Shown here: positions 2,173 through 63,314 of the stretch, in pieces
How the letters are laid out: every line of letters begins with the position of its first letter
How positions within the stretch are numbered: the stretch's first letter is position 1
Origin: a phage
Strand: one strand, 5' to 3'
Length of the DNA stretch: 64,000 bases
Sequence record: PZ583742.1
Made by a program: the position numbers and the translations under genes
The notes under the pieces: generated by a model
The model's input: the letters and a program-made list of their open reading frames with translations, nothing else
The model's database searches: none
Told to the model about the DNA's origin: nothing

Positions 2173-3851
2173 AGACTTTTAAGCTTAAGAAAGTTATCTA
2201 TAAAAATATTATGTCGGTTGGTGCTCAACCGATTACTGTTGAACTGGATAAAGTCCAAAAAACTCTGGTCACCGGCAAGAATGGTGCGGGTAAATCTACG
2301 TTCCTTGAAGCGGTTACCTTTGCTATGTTCGGTAAGCCTTTCCGTGATGTAAAGAAAGGCCAGTTGATTAACTCGAGCAACAAAAAAGATATGCTCGTTG
2401 AATTGTGGATGGAATATGATGGAAAAGAATACTATATCAAACGCGGGCAAAAACCCAATGTTTTTGAAATCTCTTGTGGCGGTAAACGTCTTGATGAATC
2501 TGCCAGCAGTAAAGACTTCCAAGCGGAATTTGAACAGCTCATCGGAATGTCCTATGCAAGCTTCAAACAGATTGTCGTACTCGGCACAGCTGGATATACC
2601 CCTTTTATGGGCCTATCCACTCCTGCAAGAAGAAAACTTGTCGAAGACCTTTTAGAGGTTTCTGTACTGGCCGATATGGATAAGCTGAACAAATCTCTTA
2701 TCCGCGAAGTCAATAGTCAAATCCAGGTGATGGATGTGCAGCATGACGGGATTGTTCAACAGATTAAAATCTATCAGGACAACGAAGACCGTCAAAGAAA
2801 ATTATCAGGTGATAATCTGTTGCGGCTGCAAACGATGTATGATGAACTTGCCACAGAAGCACGTGGAATCAAGACAACTATCGAAGAAGCAACAACAAGA
2901 CTGACCGAGATAATCTTGGGAGAAGACCCTGAGCATGAACTCACGAAGCTAAAGCAGGAATCATTTCTGATTAAGTCGAAGATAGACGATTACCGAAAGG
3001 TTGTTGGTCTGTACGAGAAAGGTGGTTGTTGTCAGACTTGTGCCAGTCAGTTGCATCCAGGAGACCCTATTGTCGCCAGGATTGAGTCAAAGATTGAAGA
3101 ATGTAATGCATCAGCTGATAAGCATAAAGCTCGCCAGAATGCTGTTCAAGAGCAATTTGATACGTATTCTGCTGCAAGACAAAACCAGCGTACAATAGCC
3201 CAAGACATTCAAACTAAGAAACAAACCTTAATCCAGACTGTTGAAAAGGCTAAAAAGGTTAAAGCATTAATCGAGCAAGCTAAGTCAGAATTCATTGACC
3301 ATGCAGCAGACATTAAAATGCTTCAAGACCAGCTTGATAAAATAGTCAAACAGAAATCTGACCTTGTGATGGAAAAATATCAACGTGGCATCCTAACGGA
3401 TATGTTGAAAGATTCCGGTATCAAAGGCGCGATTATTAAGAAATATATTCCTATCTTTAATAAGCAGATAAACGCTTACCTTAAAGTTATGGAAGCTGAT
3501 TATAGCTTTACGTTAGATGAAGAGTTCAACGAAACTATTAAATCTCGTGGACGTGAAGACTTCAGCTATGCATCATTTAGCCAGGGTGAAAAAGCTCGTA
3601 TCGATATTGCATTGCTGTTTACATGGCGTGATATTGCTGCGAAAGTATCTGGTGTTAATATTAACACCTTGATTCTGGATGAAGTTTTTGACTCGGCCAC
3701 TGATGTAGAGGGTGTTAAAGCAATTGCTACCATCCTGAACAAATTGGAAGACACCAACATCTTTATTATCAGTCACCGAGACCATGACCCGGAAGCATAC
3801 GGGCAACATCTCCAGATGAAAAAAGTTGGTCGATTCACTGTTATGGAATAA
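2169..3851 (+). CDS. 46: recombination endonuclease subunit gp46 (Rad50/SbcC-like ATPase)
   Basis: Walker A GKNGAGKST, central coiled coil with CxxC zinc hook, Walker B LILDEVFD; 560 aa; GTG start. Confidence 0.95.
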   Translation: MKTFKLKKVIYKNIMSVGAQPITVELDKVQKTLVTGKNGAGKSTFLEAVTFAMFGKPFRDVKKGQLINSSNKKDMLVELWMEYDGKEYYIKRGQKPNVFEISCGGKRLDESASSKDFQAEFEQLIGMSYASFKQIVVLGTAGYTPFMGLSTPARRKLVEDLLEVSVLADMDKLNKSLIREVNSQIQVMDVQHDGIVQQIKIYQDNEDRQRKLSGDNLLRLQTMYDELATEARGIKTTIEEATTRLTEIILGEDPEHELTKLKQESFLIKSKIDDYRKVVGLYEKGGCCQTCASQLHPGDPIVARIESKIEECNASADKHKARQNAVQEQFDTYSAARQNQRTIAQDIQTKKQTLIQTVEKAKKVKALIEQAKSEFIDHAADIKMLQDQLDKIVKQKSDLVMEKYQRGILTDMLKDSGIKGAIIKKYIPIFNKQINAYLKVMEADYSFTLDEEFNETIKSRGREDFSYASFSQGEKARIDIALLFTWRDIAAKVSGVNINTLILDEVFDSATDVEGVKAIATILNKLEDTNIFIISHRDHDPEAYGQHLQMKKVGRFTVME

Positions 3852-3875
3852 TGCTTTAAACAAGGATGTTATAAT
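3852..3875 (+). promoter_or_regulatory. MotA-box middle promoter candidate
   Basis: TGCTTTA 3852-3858, TATAAT 3870-3875. Confidence 0.45.
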
Positions 3876-3885
3876 AGAGGCTATT

Positions 3886-4077
3886 ATGGCTGACTTCTTA
3901 ACCGGGCAGCATTTACTGGCTGTCCCTGAAATTAAACGGTATGTGTTAGTTAATACCTTTTCGAAAGATGAACACCTTGTTACTGAACGTGACTTACAAA
4001 ACGCTTTCGGTGAAGAATATGTTAAAATAATCGCGAACAGACACAATGCCTGGTTTGCATATGAATACTTTGATTAA
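3886..4077 (+). CDS. hypothetical protein (63 aa)
   Basis: ATG 3886 with AGAGG upstream, just after the middle promoter. Confidence 0.4.
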   Translation: MADFLTGQHLLAVPEIKRYVLVNTFSKDEHLVTERDLQNAFGEEYVKIIANRHNAWFAYEYFD

Positions 4078-26279: not shown

Positions 26280-27604
26280 TTAAATTTGAAGACTTGAACA
26301 CAGGACAAAAAGAAGCTTTTGATTATATCACCGAAGCTATTCAACGACGTTCAGGGGAATGTATTACTCTGAATGGTCCAGCTGGTACAGGTAAAACTAC
26401 TCTGACAAAATTTGTCATTGACCATCTGGTGCGTAATGGAGTTATGGGAATTGTGCTTGCCGCACCAACTCACCAGGCAAAAAAAGTTCTATCTAAATTG
26501 TCTGGTCAAACGGCGAATACAATCCATAGTATTCTGAAGATTAACCCGACCACATATGAAGACCAAAACGTTTTTGAACAGCGCGAAATGCCTGACATGT
26601 CAAAATGTAATGTTCTGGTTTGTGATGAAGCAAGTATGTATGACGGGTCTCTGTTTAAGATTATTCTTAACTCTGTTCCTGAATGGTGTACTATTCTTGG
26701 GATTGGTGATATGCACCAGCTGCAGCCAGTTGACCCAGGAAGCACACAACAAAAGATAAGCCCATTCTTTACGCATCCTAAGTTCAAACAGATTCATCTG
26801 ACTGAGGTTATGCGAAGCAATGCTCCTATCATTGAAGTAGCGACAGAAATTCGTAACGGGGGTTGGTTCCGCGACTGTATGTATGATGGTCATGGTGTAC
26901 AGGGTTTCACCTCACAAACCGCTTTAAAGGATTTCATGATAAACTATTTTGGTATTGTAAAAGATGCTGATATGTTGATGGAAAACAGGATGTATGCGTA
27001 CACGAATAAATCAGTTGAAAAACTGAACAATATTATTCGTCGCAAGCTCTATGAAACGGATAAAGCATTTTTACCGTATGAAGTCCTAGTTATGCAAGAG
27101 CCACACATGAAAGAGCTGGAATTTGAAGGCAAGAAATTCAGCGAAACCATTTTTAATAATGGTCAGTTGGTTCGCATCAAGGATTGCAAATACACTTCCA
27201 CAATTCTCCGTTGTAAAGGTGAATCACACCAGTTAGTGATTAATTACTGGGACCTGGAAGTTGAGTCAATTGATGAAGATGAAGAATATCAGGTTGACCG
27301 CATCAAAGTTTTACCTGAAGACCAGCAACCAAAATTCCAGGCATATCTGGCTAAAGTTGCTGACACATACAAACAGATGAAAGCCGCTGGTAAACGTCCA
27401 GAGTGGAAAGACTTCTGGAAAGCCCGCCGGACCTTCTTGAAAGTTCGTGCTCTTCCGGTTAGTACAATCCACAAGGCCCAGGGCGTTTCAGTAGACAAGG
27501 CATTCATCTATACTCCATGCATCCATATGGCCGAAGCTTCATTAGCGAGCCAGTTGGCTTATGTAGGAATCACACGAGCGAGGTACGACGCATATTATGT
27601 ATAA
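26276..27604 (+). CDS. dda: Dda DNA helicase (SF1B)
   Basis: Walker A GPAGTGKTT, Walker B VLVCDEASM; 442 aa. Confidence 0.95.
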   Translation: MIKFEDLNTGQKEAFDYITEAIQRRSGECITLNGPAGTGKTTLTKFVIDHLVRNGVMGIVLAAPTHQAKKVLSKLSGQTANTIHSILKINPTTYEDQNVFEQREMPDMSKCNVLVCDEASMYDGSLFKIILNSVPEWCTILGIGDMHQLQPVDPGSTQQKISPFFTHPKFKQIHLTEVMRSNAPIIEVATEIRNGGWFRDCMYDGHGVQGFTSQTALKDFMINYFGIVKDADMLMENRMYAYTNKSVEKLNNIIRRKLYETDKAFLPYEVLVMQEPHMKELEFEGKKFSETIFNNGQLVRIKDCKYTSTILRCKGESHQLVINYWDLEVESIDEDEEYQVDRIKVLPEDQQPKFQAYLAKVADTYKQMKAAGKRPEWKDFWKARRTFLKVRALPVSTIHKAQGVSVDKAFIYTPCIHMAEASLASQLAYVGITRARYDAYYV

Positions 27605-27836
27605 AGTACATAAAGAAGATTTAGATACTCTTATCTATGGTATTCAGGACGCGGTTGAATTTTTCGAAGATAATCCGACTATCGTCCAACAGGGTAATTA
27701 CGTTTTACTGGAACTGAGTCTTATTCAGAAACGTATGGCCGCGATTGAATATTTTAACAATGAAGAGCCAGGAATTTTTATCTCCGACTATGTTGCTGGT
27801 GAAATTCAGAAATTAAAAGAGATGTGCGATGATTGA
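27597..27836 (+). CDS. hypothetical acidic protein (79 aa)
   Basis: Overlaps dda stop; between dda and dexA. Confidence 0.4.
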   Translation: MYKVHKEDLDTLIYGIQDAVEFFEDNPTIVQQGNYVLLELSLIQKRMAAIEYFNNEEPGIFISDYVAGEIQKLKEMCDD

Positions 27837-28548
27837 TGCTATTATTGACTTTGAAACTCTGGGAAACGGCTCGAAGGGAGCCGTTATTGACTTGGCCCTG
27901 ATTACATTCGAATCTGACCCTGCTATTGTGGAATCATTCGAAACCCTGGTTAATCGCGGCAAACGTATTAAGTTCAGTCTCGAATACCAAAAAGGAAAAC
28001 GTCTGTTTGACACAACAACCATGGGTTGGTGGAAAAAACAATCAGCAGAAGCACGTGTTAACCTGGCCCCTTCTGCACATGATGTTGATACTCTGACCGG
28101 TATCCAACAGGCGATTGACTATCTGAATGGCAATGGAATTAACAAATACGAAAGCCTTATGTGGTGCCGTGGAATGTCTTTTGACTTCCCGTTGTTTGTT
28201 GACCTTATCCGTGACCTGCAGCGCAATGAGGGTATCCCTGAGCGTGAATTGAATACCTATGACCTGGAGCCGGTTGTATTCTGGAACCAGCGAGATATCA
28301 GGACGGCAATCGAAGCCTTGTCACTCGTCCGTAAGATGTGTGAAACCCCATTACCGAAAGGGACTTTAGATGGATTTGTGGCGCACGATTCAGTGCATGA
28401 CTGCGCGAAAGATATTCTTATGCTGAAGTATGCCCAGCGCTATGCTCTTGGTTTAGATGAAGTTCCTTCCGAAGAAGATGCAGACCCGTTATCTTTACCA
28501 AAAAAAAACGATAAAAGTAGTGTACAAGGCCAATGGAAAGAGACATAA
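27829..28548 (+). CDS. dexA: exonuclease A DexA (DnaQ-like 3'-5' exonuclease)
   Basis: Exo I motif IDFETLG near N-terminus; 239 aa; position after dda. Confidence 0.7.
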   Translation: MIDAIIDFETLGNGSKGAVIDLALITFESDPAIVESFETLVNRGKRIKFSLEYQKGKRLFDTTTMGWWKKQSAEARVNLAPSAHDVDTLTGIQQAIDYLNGNGINKYESLMWCRGMSFDFPLFVDLIRDLQRNEGIPERELNTYDLEPVVFWNQRDIRTAIEALSLVRKMCETPLPKGTLDGFVAHDSVHDCAKDILMLKYAQRYALGLDEVPSEEDADPLSLPKKNDKSSVQGQWKET

Positions 28549-28549
28549 T
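28521..28549 (+). promoter_or_regulatory. early sigma70 promoter (inside the dexA 3' end)
   Basis: TGTACA, 17-nt spacer, CATAAT. Confidence 0.55.
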
Positions 28550-28550
28550 T

Positions 28551-28583
28551 ATCTCATCAACTACTGATGAGGATAACAAAATG
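28551..28583 (+). repeat. conserved 5' leader cassette, copy 3 of 3
   Basis: See 15381-15413; one substitution. Confidence 0.8.
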
Positions 28584-28838
28584 ATTACTTCTTTTGAAAT
28601 TGGCCAACAATATGAAATGTCCGCTCTTCAAGCTGCTGAAGCAGGTCTGACCGAAGCGTTTGAATGTGCATTTACAAATATTCGTGGTAAAATCTTTACT
28701 GTCAATAAAATTGCGGTATATGATAAAGAAACAGACATGAACAAAGGCATCTACTTGAACGTGTCAAACGCAAAAGGTCGTCGTGAAATTATGGTTGTAC
28801 AACCTAATCAACTGGCGATGTTCAATAAGGTTGCATAA
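28581..28838 (+). CDS. hypothetical protein (85 aa)
   Basis: Start after the leader (ORF-track start 28533 rejected). Confidence 0.4.
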   Translation: MITSFEIGQQYEMSALQAAEAGLTEAFECAFTNIRGKIFTVNKIAVYDKETDMNKGIYLNVSNAKGRREIMVVQPNQLAMFNKVA

Positions 28839-29590
28839 TGAAACCAGAATTTATTGACTTTGATGTTGTAAGTATGTATGTTCGCCCAATTAAACCATTA
28901 AAACTTGAGAAACAAAATATGACTATTGAAATTAACAAAACTTATCAACTGATTGAACCTATTATTCAAAACGCAGCTATGGTTTCTGGGTATAATACTC
29001 TGACTGATGCTTTAGGTGAAGGTGAATTTATTGTTGAAACTTTTGTAAAAAGTAACTGGTTTGATAAAGCATATATTCTACATGCACGTCGCCTTGATAC
29101 AAATAAAGTAGAAAAAATTATGGTTTATGAAGCTGAGATTGAACTCTTCAAAGAAGTTGAAGAAACTCCTATCAAAGTTGACAAAACCTATCAACTTGTT
29201 GGATATGGTGATTTTGATAATACTAATGCATTGAATGCCGGTTGGCGGGTGCTGAAAGGTATTTTTGGATTTGCTCCATTTACCGTTAAAACAGTTAAGT
29301 ACCACAATCACCAAAGCATCTTTGAATTTACTGCGGTCAATGAATCAGGTGACAATCTTGAAGCTATCCTTTATCCACGTGAATCTGTACTGCTGGAAGA
29401 AGTTAGCGAACTGGGTGACCCTATTGACTTGCTGTGTAAACCAGTTCAAATCAAACGCCCATTTAACAGTTCCATTTGTGGTTGGGTAACAGACCAGTGG
29501 ATTGAAGAGAGTGTTGAACTCCTGAACGTTGTCCATGCTGGTGAATTTACTGTTGTACCACGTTCCATGGTTGTTGAAATTTTTAATTAA
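28838..29590 (+). CDS. hypothetical protein (250 aa) with internal duplication and a C-terminal module shared with 29670-30230
   Basis: Repeated KTYQL segments; C-terminal WVTDQWIEESVELLNVVHAGEFTVVP. Confidence 0.45.
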   Translation: MKPEFIDFDVVSMYVRPIKPLKLEKQNMTIEINKTYQLIEPIIQNAAMVSGYNTLTDALGEGEFIVETFVKSNWFDKAYILHARRLDTNKVEKIMVYEAEIELFKEVEETPIKVDKTYQLVGYGDFDNTNALNAGWRVLKGIFGFAPFTVKTVKYHNHQSIFEFTAVNESGDNLEAILYPRESVLLEEVSELGDPIDLLCKPVQIKRPFNSSICGWVTDQWIEESVELLNVVHAGEFTVVPRSMVVEIFN

Positions 29591-29596
29591 ATTTAA

Positions 29597-29640
29597 AGTG
29601 TACAAACTCTTGGGGTCAGAGTATAATGACCCCACTGGAG
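29597..29640 (+). repeat. 44-bp promoter/stem-loop cassette, copy 1
   Basis: Matches 40846-40889 with one mismatch; includes TGTACA, GGGGTCA/TGACCCC hairpin and TATAAT. Confidence 0.85.
29599..29627 (+). promoter_or_regulatory. early promoter with stem-loop across the -10
   Basis: TGTACA 29599-29604, TATAAT 29622-29627, stem 29612-29618/29627-29633. Confidence 0.55.
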
Positions 29641-29669
29641 AATAAACTTATTAACCAAGAGAGAAAATT

Positions 29670-30230
29670 ATGAAAGTTGAAGCTGGCGAAATCGTTCGCG
29701 TATCCAAAAAATCTCGTTCAAGAGCCGCTGGACGTTTTGTTGAGGTTGTCAGTATTCGTGCTGATATTTTTGTTGACCATCCTGATAATGAAGTAAAGGT
29801 GCGTATCATTCCCAAAAATGGTCAGACTGAAACTCAATTCGCTTATGTTCGTGCTAAATTCCTGGAATCAACTGCTATTACTGCCGCCAACCTCCCTGTG
29901 GTTGAAGAAGTTGAATCCCATGATGGATATGTGTGCGAAAGCAATGATATCCGTGGCGTAATTGCTCAAGACGTTGAAACCATTGACCAGTCTCATGTTG
30001 GGGTTGATTTTAAATGGAAATTGGGCAAAGGTGTCTTTTTTGTTTCACCTAAACCGTTTGAATATGTTGACGAACCTTTTGGTACTTATGAAACCACTAG
30101 CATGTCTGGTTACATCACAGACCAGTGGGTTGAAGAAGGCGTTAAGCTCTATAACATCGTGTTCCTTGGAACCTTTAAGGTGGTTCCTGAAAGCTTTATC
30201 GTTGAGTATGCTGATATTCATCGTGCCTAA
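29670..30230 (+). CDS. hypothetical protein (186 aa) sharing a C-terminal module with 28838-29590
   Basis: C-terminal YITDQWVEEGVKLYNIVFLGTFKVVP. Confidence 0.45.
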   Translation: MKVEAGEIVRVSKKSRSRAAGRFVEVVSIRADIFVDHPDNEVKVRIIPKNGQTETQFAYVRAKFLESTAITAANLPVVEEVESHDGYVCESNDIRGVIAQDVETIDQSHVGVDFKWKLGKGVFFVSPKPFEYVDEPFGTYETTSMSGYITDQWVEEGVKLYNIVFLGTFKVVPESFIVEYADIHRA

Positions 30231-30278
30231 ATTATAAAAATGATAGGGTAAAATTACCCTATCAATGAGGAGAATATT

Positions 30279-30509
30279 ATGTTTAATGAAAATTGTGTGA
30301 CCACTTCCCTGACTGCTGAAGAGTTCTGGGACACTGCTGAAAGTGATAAAGTGATTGTGAAGAAAAACATCAATGAATTTCTTTGTACCACTGACATCAT
30401 TTATGTGTACGCAGATAAAGATGCAGAACTACCTAGCTATGCGCTGTTCCGCGAAGAATCAGAAGATGGCACAGATTTTTGGAAGGAGACTTATCATGTT
30501 GAAATTTGA
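30279..30509 (+). CDS. hypothetical acidic protein (76 aa)
   Basis: ATG with GAGGAG upstream. Confidence 0.35.
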   Translation: MFNENCVTTSLTAEEFWDTAESDKVIVKKNINEFLCTTDIIYVYADKDAELPSYALFREESEDGTDFWKETYHVEI

Positions 30510-30870
30510 AACTGATAAATGGTATTATTTTAAAGATAATGTTGCTGAAAGCAGATTTCGTTTGTTATGCTCTGATAATGATAATATAGCTGATGCTATA
30601 ATCAATGGTGAAGGATTTAGACCAGTCGGAATTGAAGGTGGTGATGTATATCGGATAGAATTTTCGACCGGTGGAATAGAGAGAATATTCATAAAGGAAG
30701 ATGAGCGTCGTTTCTTTGAAGAAGAAAAAGATGACGATACTGAAGATGAATGCGAAGACGCTGATGAAGCATTTGAACCAAGCGAATTCCCTTTGACTAA
30801 AATCACCATTTCTAATAACTCTGAAGCCTGGACCGTTTACCAGATGTTGAAAGCACACTTTAAGGAATAA
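30496..30870 (+). CDS. hypothetical protein (124 aa) with acidic tract
   Basis: AAGGAG SD then ATG 30496; EEEKDDDTEDECEDADE run. Confidence 0.4.
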   Translation: MLKFETDKWYYFKDNVAESRFRLLCSDNDNIADAIINGEGFRPVGIEGGDVYRIEFSTGGIERIFIKEDERRFFEEEKDDDTEDECEDADEAFEPSEFPLTKITISNNSEAWTVYQMLKAHFKE

Positions 30871-30871
30871 C

Positions 30872-31045
30872 ATGCCACTTTATGATTACAAATGTCAATC
30901 CAATGACTGCGCGAAAGAATACGAAAAAATCAAGAAAATCTCTGAAAGAGATAATGATGTTTGTCCTGATTGCCATCGGCTGGCTGTTCGGTTAGTCTCG
31001 GCTCCTAAACATGTTAATGGCGGTTTTTACGACCTTTTGAAGTGA
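30872..31045 (+). CDS. zinc-ribbon protein (FmdB-like), 57 aa
   Basis: MPLYDYKC...C...CPDC layout; AAGGA SD; below ORF-track cutoff. Confidence 0.45.
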   Translation: MPLYDYKCQSNDCAKEYEKIKKISERDNDVCPDCHRLAVRLVSAPKHVNGGFYDLLK

Positions 31046-31051
31046 GGATAT

Positions 31052-31312
31052 ATGAAATACATTAATCGTTCTATTGCAGCACTGGTACTGGCGGTTTCAT
31101 TGGCTAGTTGTACTGATGCAGATAATGCCATTCGTGTATTAGATGCAAACGGCTATGAACAAATCCAAATCACCGGTTATAACTGGTTGGGTTGCTCTGA
31201 AGATGATTTCCAACACACAGGCTTTACGGCCGTAGGGCCAACTGGTAAGAAAGTTAAAGGAACTGTTTGTTCTGGATTGCTGTTTAAGAATTCAACCATT
31301 CGATTTGAATAA
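31052..31312 (+). CDS. predicted lipoprotein (86 aa)
   Basis: Signal peptide with lipobox LASC; GAGGA SD. Confidence 0.5.
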   Translation: MKYINRSIAALVLAVSLASCTDADNAIRVLDANGYEQIQITGYNWLGCSEDDFQHTGFTAVGPTGKKVKGTVCSGLLFKNSTIRFE

Positions 31313-31329
31313 GGCCTTCGGGCCTTTTT
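31312..31329 (+). terminator. intrinsic terminator (UUCG tetraloop)
   Basis: AGGCC-TTCG-GGCCT then TTTT. Confidence 0.55.
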
Positions 31330-31353
31330 GCTTTAAAATATGTGACTTATAAT
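31329..31353 (+). promoter_or_regulatory. MotA-box middle promoter candidate
   Basis: TGCTTTA 31329-31335, TATAAT 31348-31353. Confidence 0.45.
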
Positions 31354-31359
31354 ACCTCC

Positions 31360-32067
31360 ATGAACTTAAAACAATTTATTGAAGAAAATCTTTTAACTAA
31401 GAACCCGAATCGTCTTAACGGTAATTTGTTCAAAAATGATTTAGAATTTGCCAAGAAATTCTGGGAAAAATATCCAGAAGAAGCAAATGTCTTTAGAACA
31501 GAAGCACTGCATTGTCAAGGAGGTAAAAGAGACCAACATCCGTACAATGAGGTCTGCTACCGTATTTTACATGATATAAAAGGAAAAGTCTTATGTAAGT
31601 GTGGTAAACCTGTTAACTATCATACATTTGCTACTGGCTACCATGAATTTTGTTCCGTTAAATGTCAGGGTGGTGGTATATTTGAAGAAGAGCGTATTTG
31701 TCCTGTTTGCGATACTAAGTATATGGCTACGAATAGGACTCAAAAATATTGTTCAGATTCCTGTGGTAAAGAAGCAAGAGATACTCAATCACTGGACTTG
31801 CCATATAGTCATTCCATAAAGATGAAAAAGCGCGACGTTTTGAAGTTAATTGAGGATACTCCGTATTGTGAAATTTGTAAAATAAAACTAACAAACAATT
31901 CGACTTCTTTATCAAAAAGCACTTGGTTCAATGTAGACCATTGCCACTCGACTGGTAAAGTCCGAGGTATTTTATGTTCAAAATGCAACATAGGCCTAGG
32001 AATGTTTAAAGACAATATTGCTTCATTAGAAACTGCGATAGAATACTTGAAACAAAGCAAGGAATAA
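31360..32067 (+). CDS. endonuclease VII-like His-Me finger nuclease with N-terminal zinc fingers (putative homing endonuclease)
   Basis: C-terminal DHCHSTGKVRGILCSKCNIGLG; several Cys pairs; first ATG (31360) near the predicted transcript start, so start uncertain. Confidence 0.55.
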   Translation: MNLKQFIEENLLTKNPNRLNGNLFKNDLEFAKKFWEKYPEEANVFRTEALHCQGGKRDQHPYNEVCYRILHDIKGKVLCKCGKPVNYHTFATGYHEFCSVKCQGGGIFEEERICPVCDTKYMATNRTQKYCSDSCGKEARDTQSLDLPYSHSIKMKKRDVLKLIEDTPYCEICKIKLTNNSTSLSKSTWFNVDHCHSTGKVRGILCSKCNIGLGMFKDNIASLETAIEYLKQSKE

Positions 32068-45555: not shown

Positions 45556-45604
45556 ACCCTTACTGAATAATTGAATGTCTTATTGAATACTTGAGTAAAT
45601 TAAA

Positions 45605-45880
45605 ATGACTAAATTTGAAATCGTTTCTGAAATTGTTACTATAACTTCAATTTTGATTAAAACCGACCGGGAAGATATTACGATGAAGCGTGATGTGTTT
45701 ATCGCGTTTTTGAATGAGTTGGGATTGAGAAATGAGAATGGGAATGAGTTAAACAATGTATCGTTTAACAAGTTGTTTAAAAGTTTATCTGAAGATGAAA
45801 TTGAACAAATCATTGAACAATTTAACGAAGGATTCGAAGATATACACCGTTATCTTATGATGTATACCTCCGGATTCTAA
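45605..45880 (+). CDS. asiA: anti-sigma70 factor AsiA
   Basis: SEIVTITSILIKTDREDI...FIAFLNELG...FNEGFEDIHRYLMMYT matches T4 AsiA. Confidence 0.85.
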   Translation: MTKFEIVSEIVTITSILIKTDREDITMKRDVFIAFLNELGLRNENGNELNNVSFNKLFKSLSEDEIEQIIEQFNEGFEDIHRYLMMYTSGF

Positions 45881-59869: not shown

Positions 59870-60232
59870 ATGGAAATCGGCAAAAAATATGAGTTCAATC
59901 CACATCGTATTAAATCTTTCATTGATATTAGTTCATCGAATGCTAGTATGGTCGACATCATCCAAGAAAATGGCGGTTGGTTTGAAGTTAAATCAATATC
60001 AAGTGCAGACGGCTATGATTATGTAACCGAAATCATTTGTGCTAATGGTGCAATCTATAATGATGATGGCATGGGTGATGATTATTTTGAACTTAGTGAA
60101 GAAGAGTTTTATTGCTTCCGTGAATACTCCAATTATACGAAAACACCTTCGGGGGCGGTTTCTATTAATTGTGTTGTAGATGCTAATAACGTCGACCAAA
60201 TCATTGAACTTCTACAAAAAGCTTTCAAATAG
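59870..60232 (+). CDS. hypothetical acidic protein (120 aa), paralog of 60581-60955
   Basis: Shares MEIGKKYEF, DDYFELSEEEF and C-terminal IIELLQKAF with the paralog. Confidence 0.45.
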   Translation: MEIGKKYEFNPHRIKSFIDISSSNASMVDIIQENGGWFEVKSISSADGYDYVTEIICANGAIYNDDGMGDDYFELSEEEFYCFREYSNYTKTPSGAVSINCVVDANNVDQIIELLQKAFK

Positions 60233-60551: not shown

Positions 60552-60580
60552 GTTCCCTCAACAAAAATGAGGAAATTAAA

Positions 60581-60955
60581 ATGGAAACCGGTAAATTTTA
60601 CGTATTGGACCCTGCTGCTAAAAAACAATTCATCACTTCTGCCATTGCTGATGATAATTATAATTCATGCATGGTCAAGTTGATGGAACAACACGGCAAT
60701 TCCTTCAAAGTCCTGGATATGAGTTATATTGAAGGTGATTATTTTGTTGAAAAAGTTGAAATGAAAGATGGCACTATCCTGAATAGTATGGGTGGGCCTG
60801 ATGAGTACTTTGAACTCGCTGAATGGGAATTCCGTCACTTCCTGGAAGTTGATGGCGATGCTCCTGATGTTGATACCCAAACCATTCATGTGCAAGTCAA
60901 TCACAAAAATGCCGCAGAAGTCATTGCGCTGATTAAAGCAACTTTTGGGGTCTAA
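60581..60955 (+). CDS. hypothetical acidic protein (124 aa), paralog of 59870-60232
   Basis: See 59870-60232. Confidence 0.45.
   Translation: METGKFYVLDPAAKKQFITSAIADDNYNSCMVKLMEQHGNSFKVLDMSYIEGDYFVEKVEMKDGTILNSMGGPDEYFELAEWEFRHFLEVDGDAPDVDTQTIHVQVNHKNAAEVIALIKATFGV

Positions 60956-61538: not shown

Positions 61539-63314
<1,776 letters not shown>

Follow-up and report, generated by a model that had tools for sequence, protein, structure and literature searches.

The two adjacent open reading frames at 28838..29590 (+) and 29670..30230 (+) are the T-even early genes motB.1 and motB. With high confidence, the best overall explanation is that they encode paralogs with a common C-terminal barrel and different N-terminal barrels. 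The window, i.e., the whole stretch of 64,000 nucleotides analysed here (record PZ583742.1), belongs to a Gaprivervirus-like T-even phage. Its DNA is 96.9% identical to vB_EcoM_RZ and 94% identical to SP18, with gene order conserved in both, and the order dexA–motB.1–motB–cef–goF is that of T4 and SP18. An earlier note on this DNA had placed both frames correctly; its remark that no known family could be recognised does not hold. The 186-aa product of the second frame covers the whole profile of Pfam PF17613 (MotB) with 193.6 bits (E 2.6e-57; gathering threshold 25 bits) and matches PHROG 1671 (E 3.5e-69). It consists of a basic KOW-like barrel, an acidic disordered linker, and the shared C-terminal barrel. 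The 250-aa product of the first frame matches PHROG 2333 (MotB.1) over residues 2–250 (E 6.1e-77) and is 99.2% identical to a vB_EcoM_RZ protein, and the SP18 gene at this position carries the annotation motB.1. It is composed of a leader peptide, barrel A, barrel B, and the shared C-terminal barrel, and its ATG overlaps the stop codon of the upstream gene (TAATG). Its C-terminus also passes the Pfam MotB threshold (30.6 bits, 3.7e-7), at profile positions 118–154 only. This frame lacks the KOW-like barrel and is therefore not a MotB ortholog.

T4 MotB binds DNA tightly and without sequence specificity, in the manner of nucleoid-associated proteins (Patterson-West et al. 2018, PMC6070864; Son et al. 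2021, PMC7827196). It copurifies with H-NS/StpA, alters the H-NS footprint, and increases burst size (PMC6070864; PMC7827196). DNA binding and the influence on H-NS–DNA complexes are documented for the T4 protein alone. T4 motB.1 is non-essential (Kim et al. 2025, PMC12152347), and no activity is known for it in the literature. The window MotB resembles T4 MotB in its two-domain layout and genomic position and shares ~51% of its residues with the T4-type cluster P0191; the product of 28838–29590 resembles T4 MotB in its last ~53 residues only. The latter agrees with the T4 MotB.1 group in its full PHROG 2333 match, its C-terminal domain, and its site upstream of motB. T4 MotB.1 and its group correspond to categories 2–4 of Son et al. 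2021 (PMC7827196). That study had already described the C-terminal domain common to both proteins, and its homolog table includes SP18_gp012, the SP18 gene at the motB.1 position. The small N-terminal barrel of MotB.1 and its relationship to GoF and Frd.2 have also been described, as an "LSm-like fold" (Kim et al. 2025, PMC12152347). Because the shared domain and the barrel family are published, the observation of the earlier note is correct but not new, and it has little weight as a discovery, both genes being annotated in close relatives. The present analysis adds an SH3/Tudor-like model of the module, its acidity and its standing as the most conserved segment, the tandem of A and B subtypes, and a module-linked peptide. 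These details could help work on T4 host takeover.

The shared C-terminal module occupies 29429..29587 (+) in motB.1 (aa 198–250), where it forms a five-strand small barrel, and 30018..30215 (+) in motB (aa 117–182), where the first hairpin is ~14 residues longer. BLASTP aligns residues 201–247 of the first protein with 128–179 of the second at 24 identities in 52 positions (46%, E 5e-12). In hhalign, the MotB.1 and MotB families have this region as their sole common one (53 columns, probability 98.7%, E 3.8e-16). The module reported earlier is thus real and its quoted motif (TDQWxEEGVxLxNxV..G.F.VVP.S) is accurate, while its length is ~53 residues by hhalign rather than ~40. An alignment of 23 diverse members of both families leaves D, W, E, L, N, V, and V unchanged throughout; in all, seven columns of the module are invariant across them and five more nearly so. 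The MotB.1-type C-terminal domain (DPxDLLC...GWVTDQWIEDGVELLNVVH) is present in the frame at 28838–29590, with 17 invariant residues from C214 to G235 in an alignment of 31 family members, and residues 194–250 are 63–70% identical to other MotB.1 proteins. Conservation is highest in the shared core in both families, with an identity of 0.89 in MotB.1 (against 0.60) and 0.67 in MotB (against 0.55). At the DNA level, the two cores appear as a 60-nt direct repeat with 72% identity at 29473 and 30101.

A profile of the module, scanned against 1.84 billion representatives, gave 36 matches at E<=1e-3, and the 21 matches at E<=1e-10 were all MotB/MotB.1-type proteins. Among the 36, 28 appear genuine. 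Seven long proteins (P0260–P0262 and P0264–P0267, 361–862 aa) match 20–25 profile positions in 4–7 repeated stretches and were judged spurious repeat-protein matches; P0267, the one inspected, is a tandem-repeat protein. The remaining match, P0236, comes from a frameshifted fragment of MotB and stops short of the shared core. When the 1055 window ORFs of >= 30 aa were all scanned by HMM, no third copy of the module was found. A weak match at 62066–62233 (−) was rejected, and another at 45599–45877 (+) belongs to an anti-sigma-factor PHROG and is a chance match. The possibility that the common C-terminus is a chance or compositional match, or a coiled-coil or low-complexity segment, is negligible. 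It is opposed by the pairwise and profile–profile E values, by the invariant and nearly invariant columns, by the small number and uniform identity of the profile matches, and by the beta-rich globular model (pLDDT 86–94 in MotB). The low-complexity or coiled-coil pattern that the earlier note had named as the result that would undo its claim was not found, and the module models as five beta strands.

The same module is joined to different N-terminal domains, as had been noted for the two proteins of the window, and this arrangement is more general than that. Among 275 cluster representatives, it is preceded by a KOW-like barrel, an A-type barrel, a B-type barrel, an A+B tandem, or an extra N-terminal domain followed by A. 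It is found on at least four N-terminal architectures, in T4-like phages only. MotB and MotB.1 are old paralogs that arose by domain shuffling.

The AF2 models of MotB.1 and MotB have pLDDT values of 74.9 and 70.6 and are based on shallow alignments of 27–31 sequences from T-even phages only. Every domain of both proteins is modelled as a five-strand meander with a 3-10 turn preceding the last strand. In the module, the predicted strands are 202–205, 213–223, 226–233, 236–241, and, after the 3-10 turn, 245–247 in MotB.1, and 121–134, 138–155, 158–165, 168–173, and, after the turn, 177–180 in MotB. Son et al. 2021 proposed a nucleic-acid-binding OB-fold for the C-terminal domain of MotB, with an HHpred relationship of T4 MotB residues 69–149 to eIF5A OB domains (PMC7827196). 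An OB-fold has a meander of strands 1–3, a crossover, usually a helix, between strands 3 and 4, and pairing of strand 1 with strand 4. This topology was not found in the AF2 models of the module, which are all-hairpin meanders. In contrast to the published OB-fold of T4 MotB, the C-terminal domain of the window MotB models as an SH3/Tudor-like barrel, and on these models the published assignment is probably wrong. The likeness to SH3-like small beta-barrels (Tudor, chromo, PWWP, KOW, and EF-P domain I) is at the fold level only, with 8–20% identity, so membership in those families is not established, and no sequence relationship between them and the module was found. PDB sequence searches with both proteins and the module profile revealed no solved relative; the profile search with the module gave no match at E<=10, and the single PDB match, 2b25 (E 0.57), is noise. 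A BFVD fold search, which returned mostly relatives of MotB.1 and unnamed phage proteins with several barrels, gave no functional lead.

The MotB N-terminal five-strand barrel (aa 1–68; 29670..29873, +) is basic, with a family mean net charge of +5.2 and a pI of 9.7. Its strands are predicted at 8–11, 23–29, 41–46, 56–61, and, after a 3-10 turn, 65–67, and it carries the invariant VS..S.S...G loop, with G6, V11, S12, S15, S17, and G21 invariant. The acidic linker that follows (aa 69–107; 29874..29990, +) is predicted to be disordered, with pLDDT < 50 throughout. It holds a variable acidic insert of 23–27 aa, which occurs in 25 MotB cluster representatives and is absent from T4 and SP18 MotB. 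The hhalign comparisons of the KOW barrel with the shared C-terminal domain and with the MotB.1 repeats were not significant (E 0.28–0.8); therefore, the barrels are described as alike in fold, and homology of all of them is not claimed.

The charge of the shared module differs from that of the MotB N-terminal barrel. The MotB.1 C-terminal domain has a mean net charge of -4.1 and a pI of 4.4, and the shared core within MotB has a mean net charge of -2.0. The invariant residues D, Q, W, E, G, L, and N include no basic one. The first strand is locally basic in both proteins, with three basic residues each (CKPVQIKRPF and FKWKLGKGV). Given its acidity and its standing as the best-conserved part of both proteins, a role in protein interaction or assembly is favoured for the module, and the common partner or localisation signal suggested by the earlier note is plausible on these sequence grounds. 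The same two properties suggest that DNA is contacted by the basic KOW barrel. It is tentatively proposed, at slightly less than even confidence, that the N-terminal barrel of MotB acts on DNA while the shared C-terminal barrel makes protein contacts. The basic barrel would contact DNA, and the acidic conserved barrel, perhaps with the DxDVxSMY peptide, would be a protein–protein module serving self-assembly, heteromer formation, or docking onto a common host target. Different nucleic-acid-binding barrels could be brought to the same complex in this way. In the literature, no MotB truncation data were found, nor an experiment that maps DNA binding to one of the two domains.

A rather doubtful alternative is that the shared barrel is itself the nucleic-acid-binding domain, OB-fold or cold-shock-like as proposed by Son et al. 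2021 (PMC7827196). In that case, MotB.1 would also bind DNA or RNA, through the contact surface that MotB uses. The tight, non-specific DNA binding of MotB, the HHpred link to eIF5A, and the basic residues on the first strand are consistent with this alternative. However, the module is acidic, no basic residue is conserved between the MotB and MotB.1 families, the modelled topology is SH3-like, and it is in the N-terminal barrel that MotB is clearly basic.

The internal duplication of MotB.1 that had been noticed was verified. The protein contains two homologous 82-residue repeats, each with the KTYQL motif (aa 34–38 and 116–120). Residues 30–111 and 112–193 are 29% identical over 82 aa (E 8e-5), a profile of the second repeat matches the first (i-E 4.3e-4), and hhalign joins the two over 75 columns (E 3e-10). 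Each repeat alone maps to the same positions of PHROG 2333 (42/44–129), with E 2.7e-23 for repeat A at 42–129. Barrel A (aa 28–111; 28919..29170, +) is a small beta-barrel whose first and second strands are linked by a helix, and barrel B (aa 112–196; 29171..29425, +) is its divergent paralog. In the AF2 models, repeat A has strands at 35–38, 63–71, 78–85, 91–97, and 104–106, with a helix at 46–59 and a short one at 98–103. Repeat B has strands at 117–120, 148–156, 161–168, 173–178, and 186–189, with a helix at 130–143 and a short one at 180–185. The order of strands and helices is identical in both.

Barrels of the A type were found by tblastn in 387 phage records, and barrel B of the window type in 34 only. 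A occurs alone in ~105 cluster representatives, and B alone in T4 MotB.1, P0110, and P0252. The A+B tandem occurs in 7 cluster representatives and is confined to 34 phage records of one lineage. Most T-even MotB.1 proteins have a leader and one A barrel, to which the window protein adds B, whereas T4 MotB.1 has one B-like barrel and no leader; the best alignment of its N-terminal domain is with repeat B (E 0.003). A and B are two divergent subtypes, each single in other T-even phages, and not the product of a recent duplication. What has been published as two N-terminal "categories" of MotB.1 is a pair of paralogous barrels, which stand in tandem in one lineage; the tandem form was not found described in PMC7827196 or PMC12152347. 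It is very improbable that the repeats are a recent in-place duplication of the window genome or an assembly artefact without wider meaning. Such an origin would fit the 33-nt DNA repeat (79% identity) at the repeat starts, the period of 246 nt, and the limitation of the tandem to one lineage. However, the repeats share only 29% of their residues, the lone barrel of JS98/T6/RB32-type MotB.1 matches repeat A at 60–67% identity, the one barrel of P0110 and, more weakly, that of T4 MotB.1 are similar to repeat B, and the A+B arrangement is kept at 77–100% identity in 34 independent phage genomes. The low identity, the single-barrel relatives, and the conservation in 34 genomes therefore indicate an old combination of subtypes or an ancestral pair that was reduced elsewhere. 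Two candidates for a further repeat copy, the upstream 85/101-aa ORF (28533/28581–28838) and the extra N-terminal domain of 247-aa MotB.1 variants (P0008 type), were unsupported (hhalign E 0.0068–0.44). The best alignment in this comparison, Nx against repeat A, had a probability of 5.6% over 19 columns. Homologs of the upstream ORF form 6 near-identical clusters only, too few for a profile.

The frame at 30496..30870 (+) is a goF homolog and a possible remote paralog of the MotB.1 barrels. It matches PHROG 622 (2.9e-29) and, weakly, goF PHROGs, and SP18 has a gene annotated goF at the corresponding site. As in the Tevenvirinae GoF/Frd.2/MotB.1 "LSm-like fold" family, each MotB.1 repeat models as a bent five-strand antiparallel barrel (35–106 and 117–189; block pLDDT 70–89). 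Repeat A has a weak full-length match to PHROG 622 (Frd.2/GoF; E 6.4e-3) and a weak hhalign match to the window GoF/Frd.2 set (E 1.4e-3, probability 17%, 77 columns); repeat B has no match to GoF/Frd.2. A specific structural resemblance of the MotB.1 barrels to Sm/LSm/Hfq was sought and not found. A dimer band has been reported beside the monomer for MotB.1, and GoF also shows one (Kim et al. 2025, PMC12152347). GoF does so without the module, so the dimer band is uninformative on the role of the module.

The C-terminal barrel often comes with a conserved linear peptide, DxDVxSMY, and the two move together. In the window MotB.1, the peptide forms the leader IDFDVVSMYVRPIKPLK (aa 6–22; 28853..28903, +), which is predicted to be disordered (AF2 pLDDT < 50 for residues 1–27). 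The leader motif occurs in ~120 of the 275 family proteins, and its position relative to the barrels varies. It is conceivable, although improbable, that the barrel and the DxDVxSMY..P.KPL peptide form a portable assembly or targeting cassette that joins MotB and MotB.1 or a host factor. MotB, with its DNA-binding KOW barrel, and MotB.1, with one to three GoF-like and possibly RNA-binding barrels, would then co-assemble, or both might dock onto the same host factor, e.g., the H-NS/StpA nucleoprotein. If true, motB.1–motB would be a two-component module for nucleoid takeover, with the variable N-terminal barrels as exchangeable payloads.

The spacer between motB.1 and motB contains a promoter-like site, TGTACA-17-TATAAT (29599..29627, +), identified by consensus match only. 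It is the best such match within 27500–31400 (10/12) and overlaps a GGGGTCAG/TGACCCC hairpin. The spacer RNA has a predicted folding energy of -19.3 kcal/mol (z -2.5).

The two adjacent genes lie at 28838..29590 (+, 250 aa; ORF1) and 29670..30230 (+, 186 aa; ORF2) in the ORF listing, and the ATG of ORF1 overlaps the stop codon of an upstream 101-aa ORF (TAATG). The window comes from a T-even phage; its 3.9-kb neighbourhood here shares 96.9% identity with Escherichia phage vB_EcoM_RZ and ~94% with Shigella phage SP18 of the genus Gaprivervirus. The gene order of the window (dda, dda.1, dexA, a small ORF, ORF1, ORF2, cef, goF, 39.2, 39.1, gp39) matches the dexA–motB.2–motB.1–motB–cef–goF order of T4. 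ORF2 scores 193.6 bits with the Pfam motB profile PF17613 (cutoff 25) and hits PHROG 1671 at 3.5e-69. ORF1 matches PHROG 2333 over its full length (6.1e-77), and its last 40 residues score 30.6 bits, above the Pfam motB threshold. The corresponding SP18 genes are annotated motB.1 and motB. Because of these matches and this annotation, the earlier note, which recognised no known family, was wrong on this point.

Several other elements were observed in this region. The small ORF at 28533-28838 (+; likely start 28581; PHROG 17795) sits at the position of T4 motB.2. It has only 6 clusters among 5.8 billion proteins, all at least 89% identical, and profile-profile comparison detected no similarity to the MotB.1 repeats. 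The motB.1-motB spacer holds at 29599-29640 (+) the top sigma-70-like site of the region, TGTACA-17-TATAAT, predicted from its consensus match and overlapping an 8-bp GC-rich hairpin. Another hairpin, of 10 bp, is located at 30241-30264 between motB and cef (z -2.9). A 241-aa ORF at 31342-32067 (+), flanked by gene 39.1 and topoisomerase gene 39, carries an Endonuclease_7 domain (PF02945, 5.5e-18) and also matches homing-endonuclease PHROGs. SP18 encodes another ORF, of 132 aa, at this position, and the window ORF probably represents an inserted mobile nuclease. In the T4 record KJ477684.1 (strain wild), the motB.1 ORF at 3510-3941 encodes 143 aa and is not annotated. T4 MotB.1 has 119 aa (13.8 kDa) in UniProt P39415; therefore, its start or end differs by source.

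The feature is already known, because GenBank relatives at 99% identity are annotated and the domain common to both proteins has been described in the literature, also for the SP18 gene at this position. Son et al. 2021 (PMC7827196) described a C-terminal domain common to MotB and MotB.1 homologs, grouped 102 phage homologs by the type of their N-terminus into four categories, noted both genes in 40 other genomes and included SP18_gp012, the SP18 gene at the position of ORF1, in a supplementary table. The present analysis confirms the observation of the earlier note and partly supports its interpretation. Its additions are modest: the reading of two tandem barrels, a probable SH3-like fold, an argument from charge and conservation, extra architectures and a leader peptide that appears to travel with the module.

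The C-terminal module common to both proteins is similar far beyond chance. Residues 201-247 of ORF1 and 128-179 of ORF2 are identical at 24/52 positions (BLASTP, E 5e-12), the motif TDQW.EEGV.L.N.V..G.F.VVP.S is present as quoted, and the DNA carries a direct repeat of 60 nt at 29473 and 30101 (72% identity). Profiles of 31 MotB.1-type and 27 MotB-type sequences have just one region in common, which aligns ORF1 198-250 with MotB 117-182 over 53 columns (probability 98.7%, E 3.8e-16). The first hairpin of the module is roughly 14 residues longer in MotB. In a set of 23 diverse modules drawn from the two families, seven positions never vary (D, W, E, L, N, V and V) and five more are almost fixed (L, G, Q, G and G). 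PDB searches with ORF1, ORF2 and the module profile found no solved relative by sequence. AlphaFold2 models (mean pLDDT 74.9 for ORF1 and 70.6 for MotB, with 86-94 in the MotB C-terminal domain) suggest that the fold is probably SH3-like rather than OB.

The internal duplication of ORF1 was also correctly noted. KTYQL occurs at residues 34-38 and 116-120, and the two 82-residue segments that it opens share 29% identity (E 8e-5); in their DNA, 33 nt recur at 79% identity with a period of 246 nt (28923/29169). The AlphaFold2 model comprises a disordered leader (residues 1-27), barrel A (35-106), barrel B (117-189) and the C-terminal barrel (202-247). The order of elements is identical in A and B, namely strand, helix, three strands, short helix and strand. 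A-type and B-type sequences align cleanly by profile-profile comparison (E 3e-10, 75 columns), and in PHROG 2333 the positions matched by A alone and by B alone coincide. The single barrel of JS98, T6 and RB32-type MotB.1 shares 60-67% identity with A, which is present in 387 phage records, whereas B could be detected in just 34, all from the lineage of the window phage. The single barrel of cluster representative P0110 resembles B, as does that of T4 MotB.1, weakly (E 0.003). Judged from these comparisons, A and B do not stem from a recent duplication, since A occurs singly elsewhere and B resembles the P0110 and T4 MotB.1 barrels. The two N-terminal types, separate categories in the literature, are probably paralogous barrels, because A and B are homologous and each has single-barrel relatives. 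The window lineage carries both types in tandem, an arrangement of paralogous categories not found in Son et al. 2021 or Kim et al. 2025 (PMC12152347). Repeat A of ORF1 also gives weak but full-length matches to Frd.2/GoF (E 6.4e-3 to PHROG 622; 1.4e-3 by hhalign), whereas repeat B gave none. PHROG 622 holds the window goF (30496-30870) and two FRD2-family genes that lie next to each other at 59870-60229 (+; PF03197, 8.8e-36) and 60578-60952 (+; PF03197, 9.6e-33) and probably also belong to the small-barrel paralog family.

A search of 1.84 billion cluster representatives with the module profile gave 36 proteins at E<=1e-3, and 28 of these are phage MotB or MotB.1-type proteins. Seven are long repeat proteins matched over just 20-25 positions and were regarded as spurious; P0236 is a MotB fragment with a frameshift, where its match ends (profile positions 1-37) before the shared core is reached. 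Carriers are T4-like phages of Enterobacterales only. The module occurs at 1407 places in 779 records, and most genomes have two copies. Classification of 275 collected family sequences bore out its presence on different N-terminal domains, with six architectures: KOW–CTD (122), (leader)–A–CTD (about 105), extra N-domain–(leader)–A–CTD (9), leader–A–B–CTD (7), KOW–(leader)–MotB.1-type CTD (6, including Edwardsiella phage PEi26) and B–CTD variants (3). In the 43-aa representative P0259, the MotB.2 N-terminus (MKIYRVESSFSIL.YED) is joined in frame to the final 27 residues of the MotB.1 C-terminal barrel. This protein is apparently a deletion remnant, and thus the motB.2/motB.1 region has been rearranged in some phages; it may correspond to the 29-aa peptide that forms "category 3" in Son et al. 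2021.

MotB reportedly compacts DNA, with several MotB molecules said to lie at the centre of the complexes in a 2021 NAR paper. T4 MotB is a tight DNA binder that shows no sequence specificity; it copurifies with H-NS/StpA, modifies the footprint of H-NS and increases burst size about twofold (PMC6070864, PMC7827196). The N-terminal KOW barrel of MotB is strongly basic (family mean net charge +5.2, pI 9.7) and contains an invariant VS..S.S...G loop. The module is acidic (-4.1 and pI 4.4 for the MotB.1 C-terminal domain; -2.0 for the MotB core) and shows the highest conservation within each protein (identity 0.89 vs 0.60 in MotB.1; 0.67 vs 0.55 in MotB). The main rival proposal, that the module itself binds nucleic acid (Son et al. 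2021), has on its side a first strand that is locally basic in ORF1 and MotB alike and related barrels, such as PWWP and KOW, that can bind nucleic acid; we consider it rather unlikely. No basic residue is conserved between the two families in the 23 diverse modules compared. Because of this, the basic KOW barrel and the acidic, most conserved module, we tentatively favour a division in which the KOW barrel would contact DNA and the shared barrel would act between proteins, through self-assembly, heteromer formation or docking on a common host target. Such a protein-protein role would make more specific the common partner or localisation signal suggested in the earlier note.

The peptide [IV]DxD[VI]xS[MT]Y..P[IV]KPL, at ORF1 residues 6-22 (28853-28903, +) and predicted to be disordered, is found in about 120 of the 275 MotB.1/MotB-type proteins. 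Its position relative to the barrels varies: it precedes them in most carriers and lies immediately N-terminal to the C-terminal barrel in the KOW hybrids and in cluster representative P0252. It behaves like a linear motif travelling with the module. The window MotB also contains an acidic linker insert of 23-27 residues (VVEEVESHDGYVCESNDIRGVIAQDVE) at aa ~77-103 (29898-29978, +), which SP18 MotB and T4 MotB lack and about 25 MotB cluster representatives contain. Within it, the stretch DGYV..(E/D)(S/T)(N/D)D resembles the sequence beside the leader motif in the KOW-leader-CTD hybrids.
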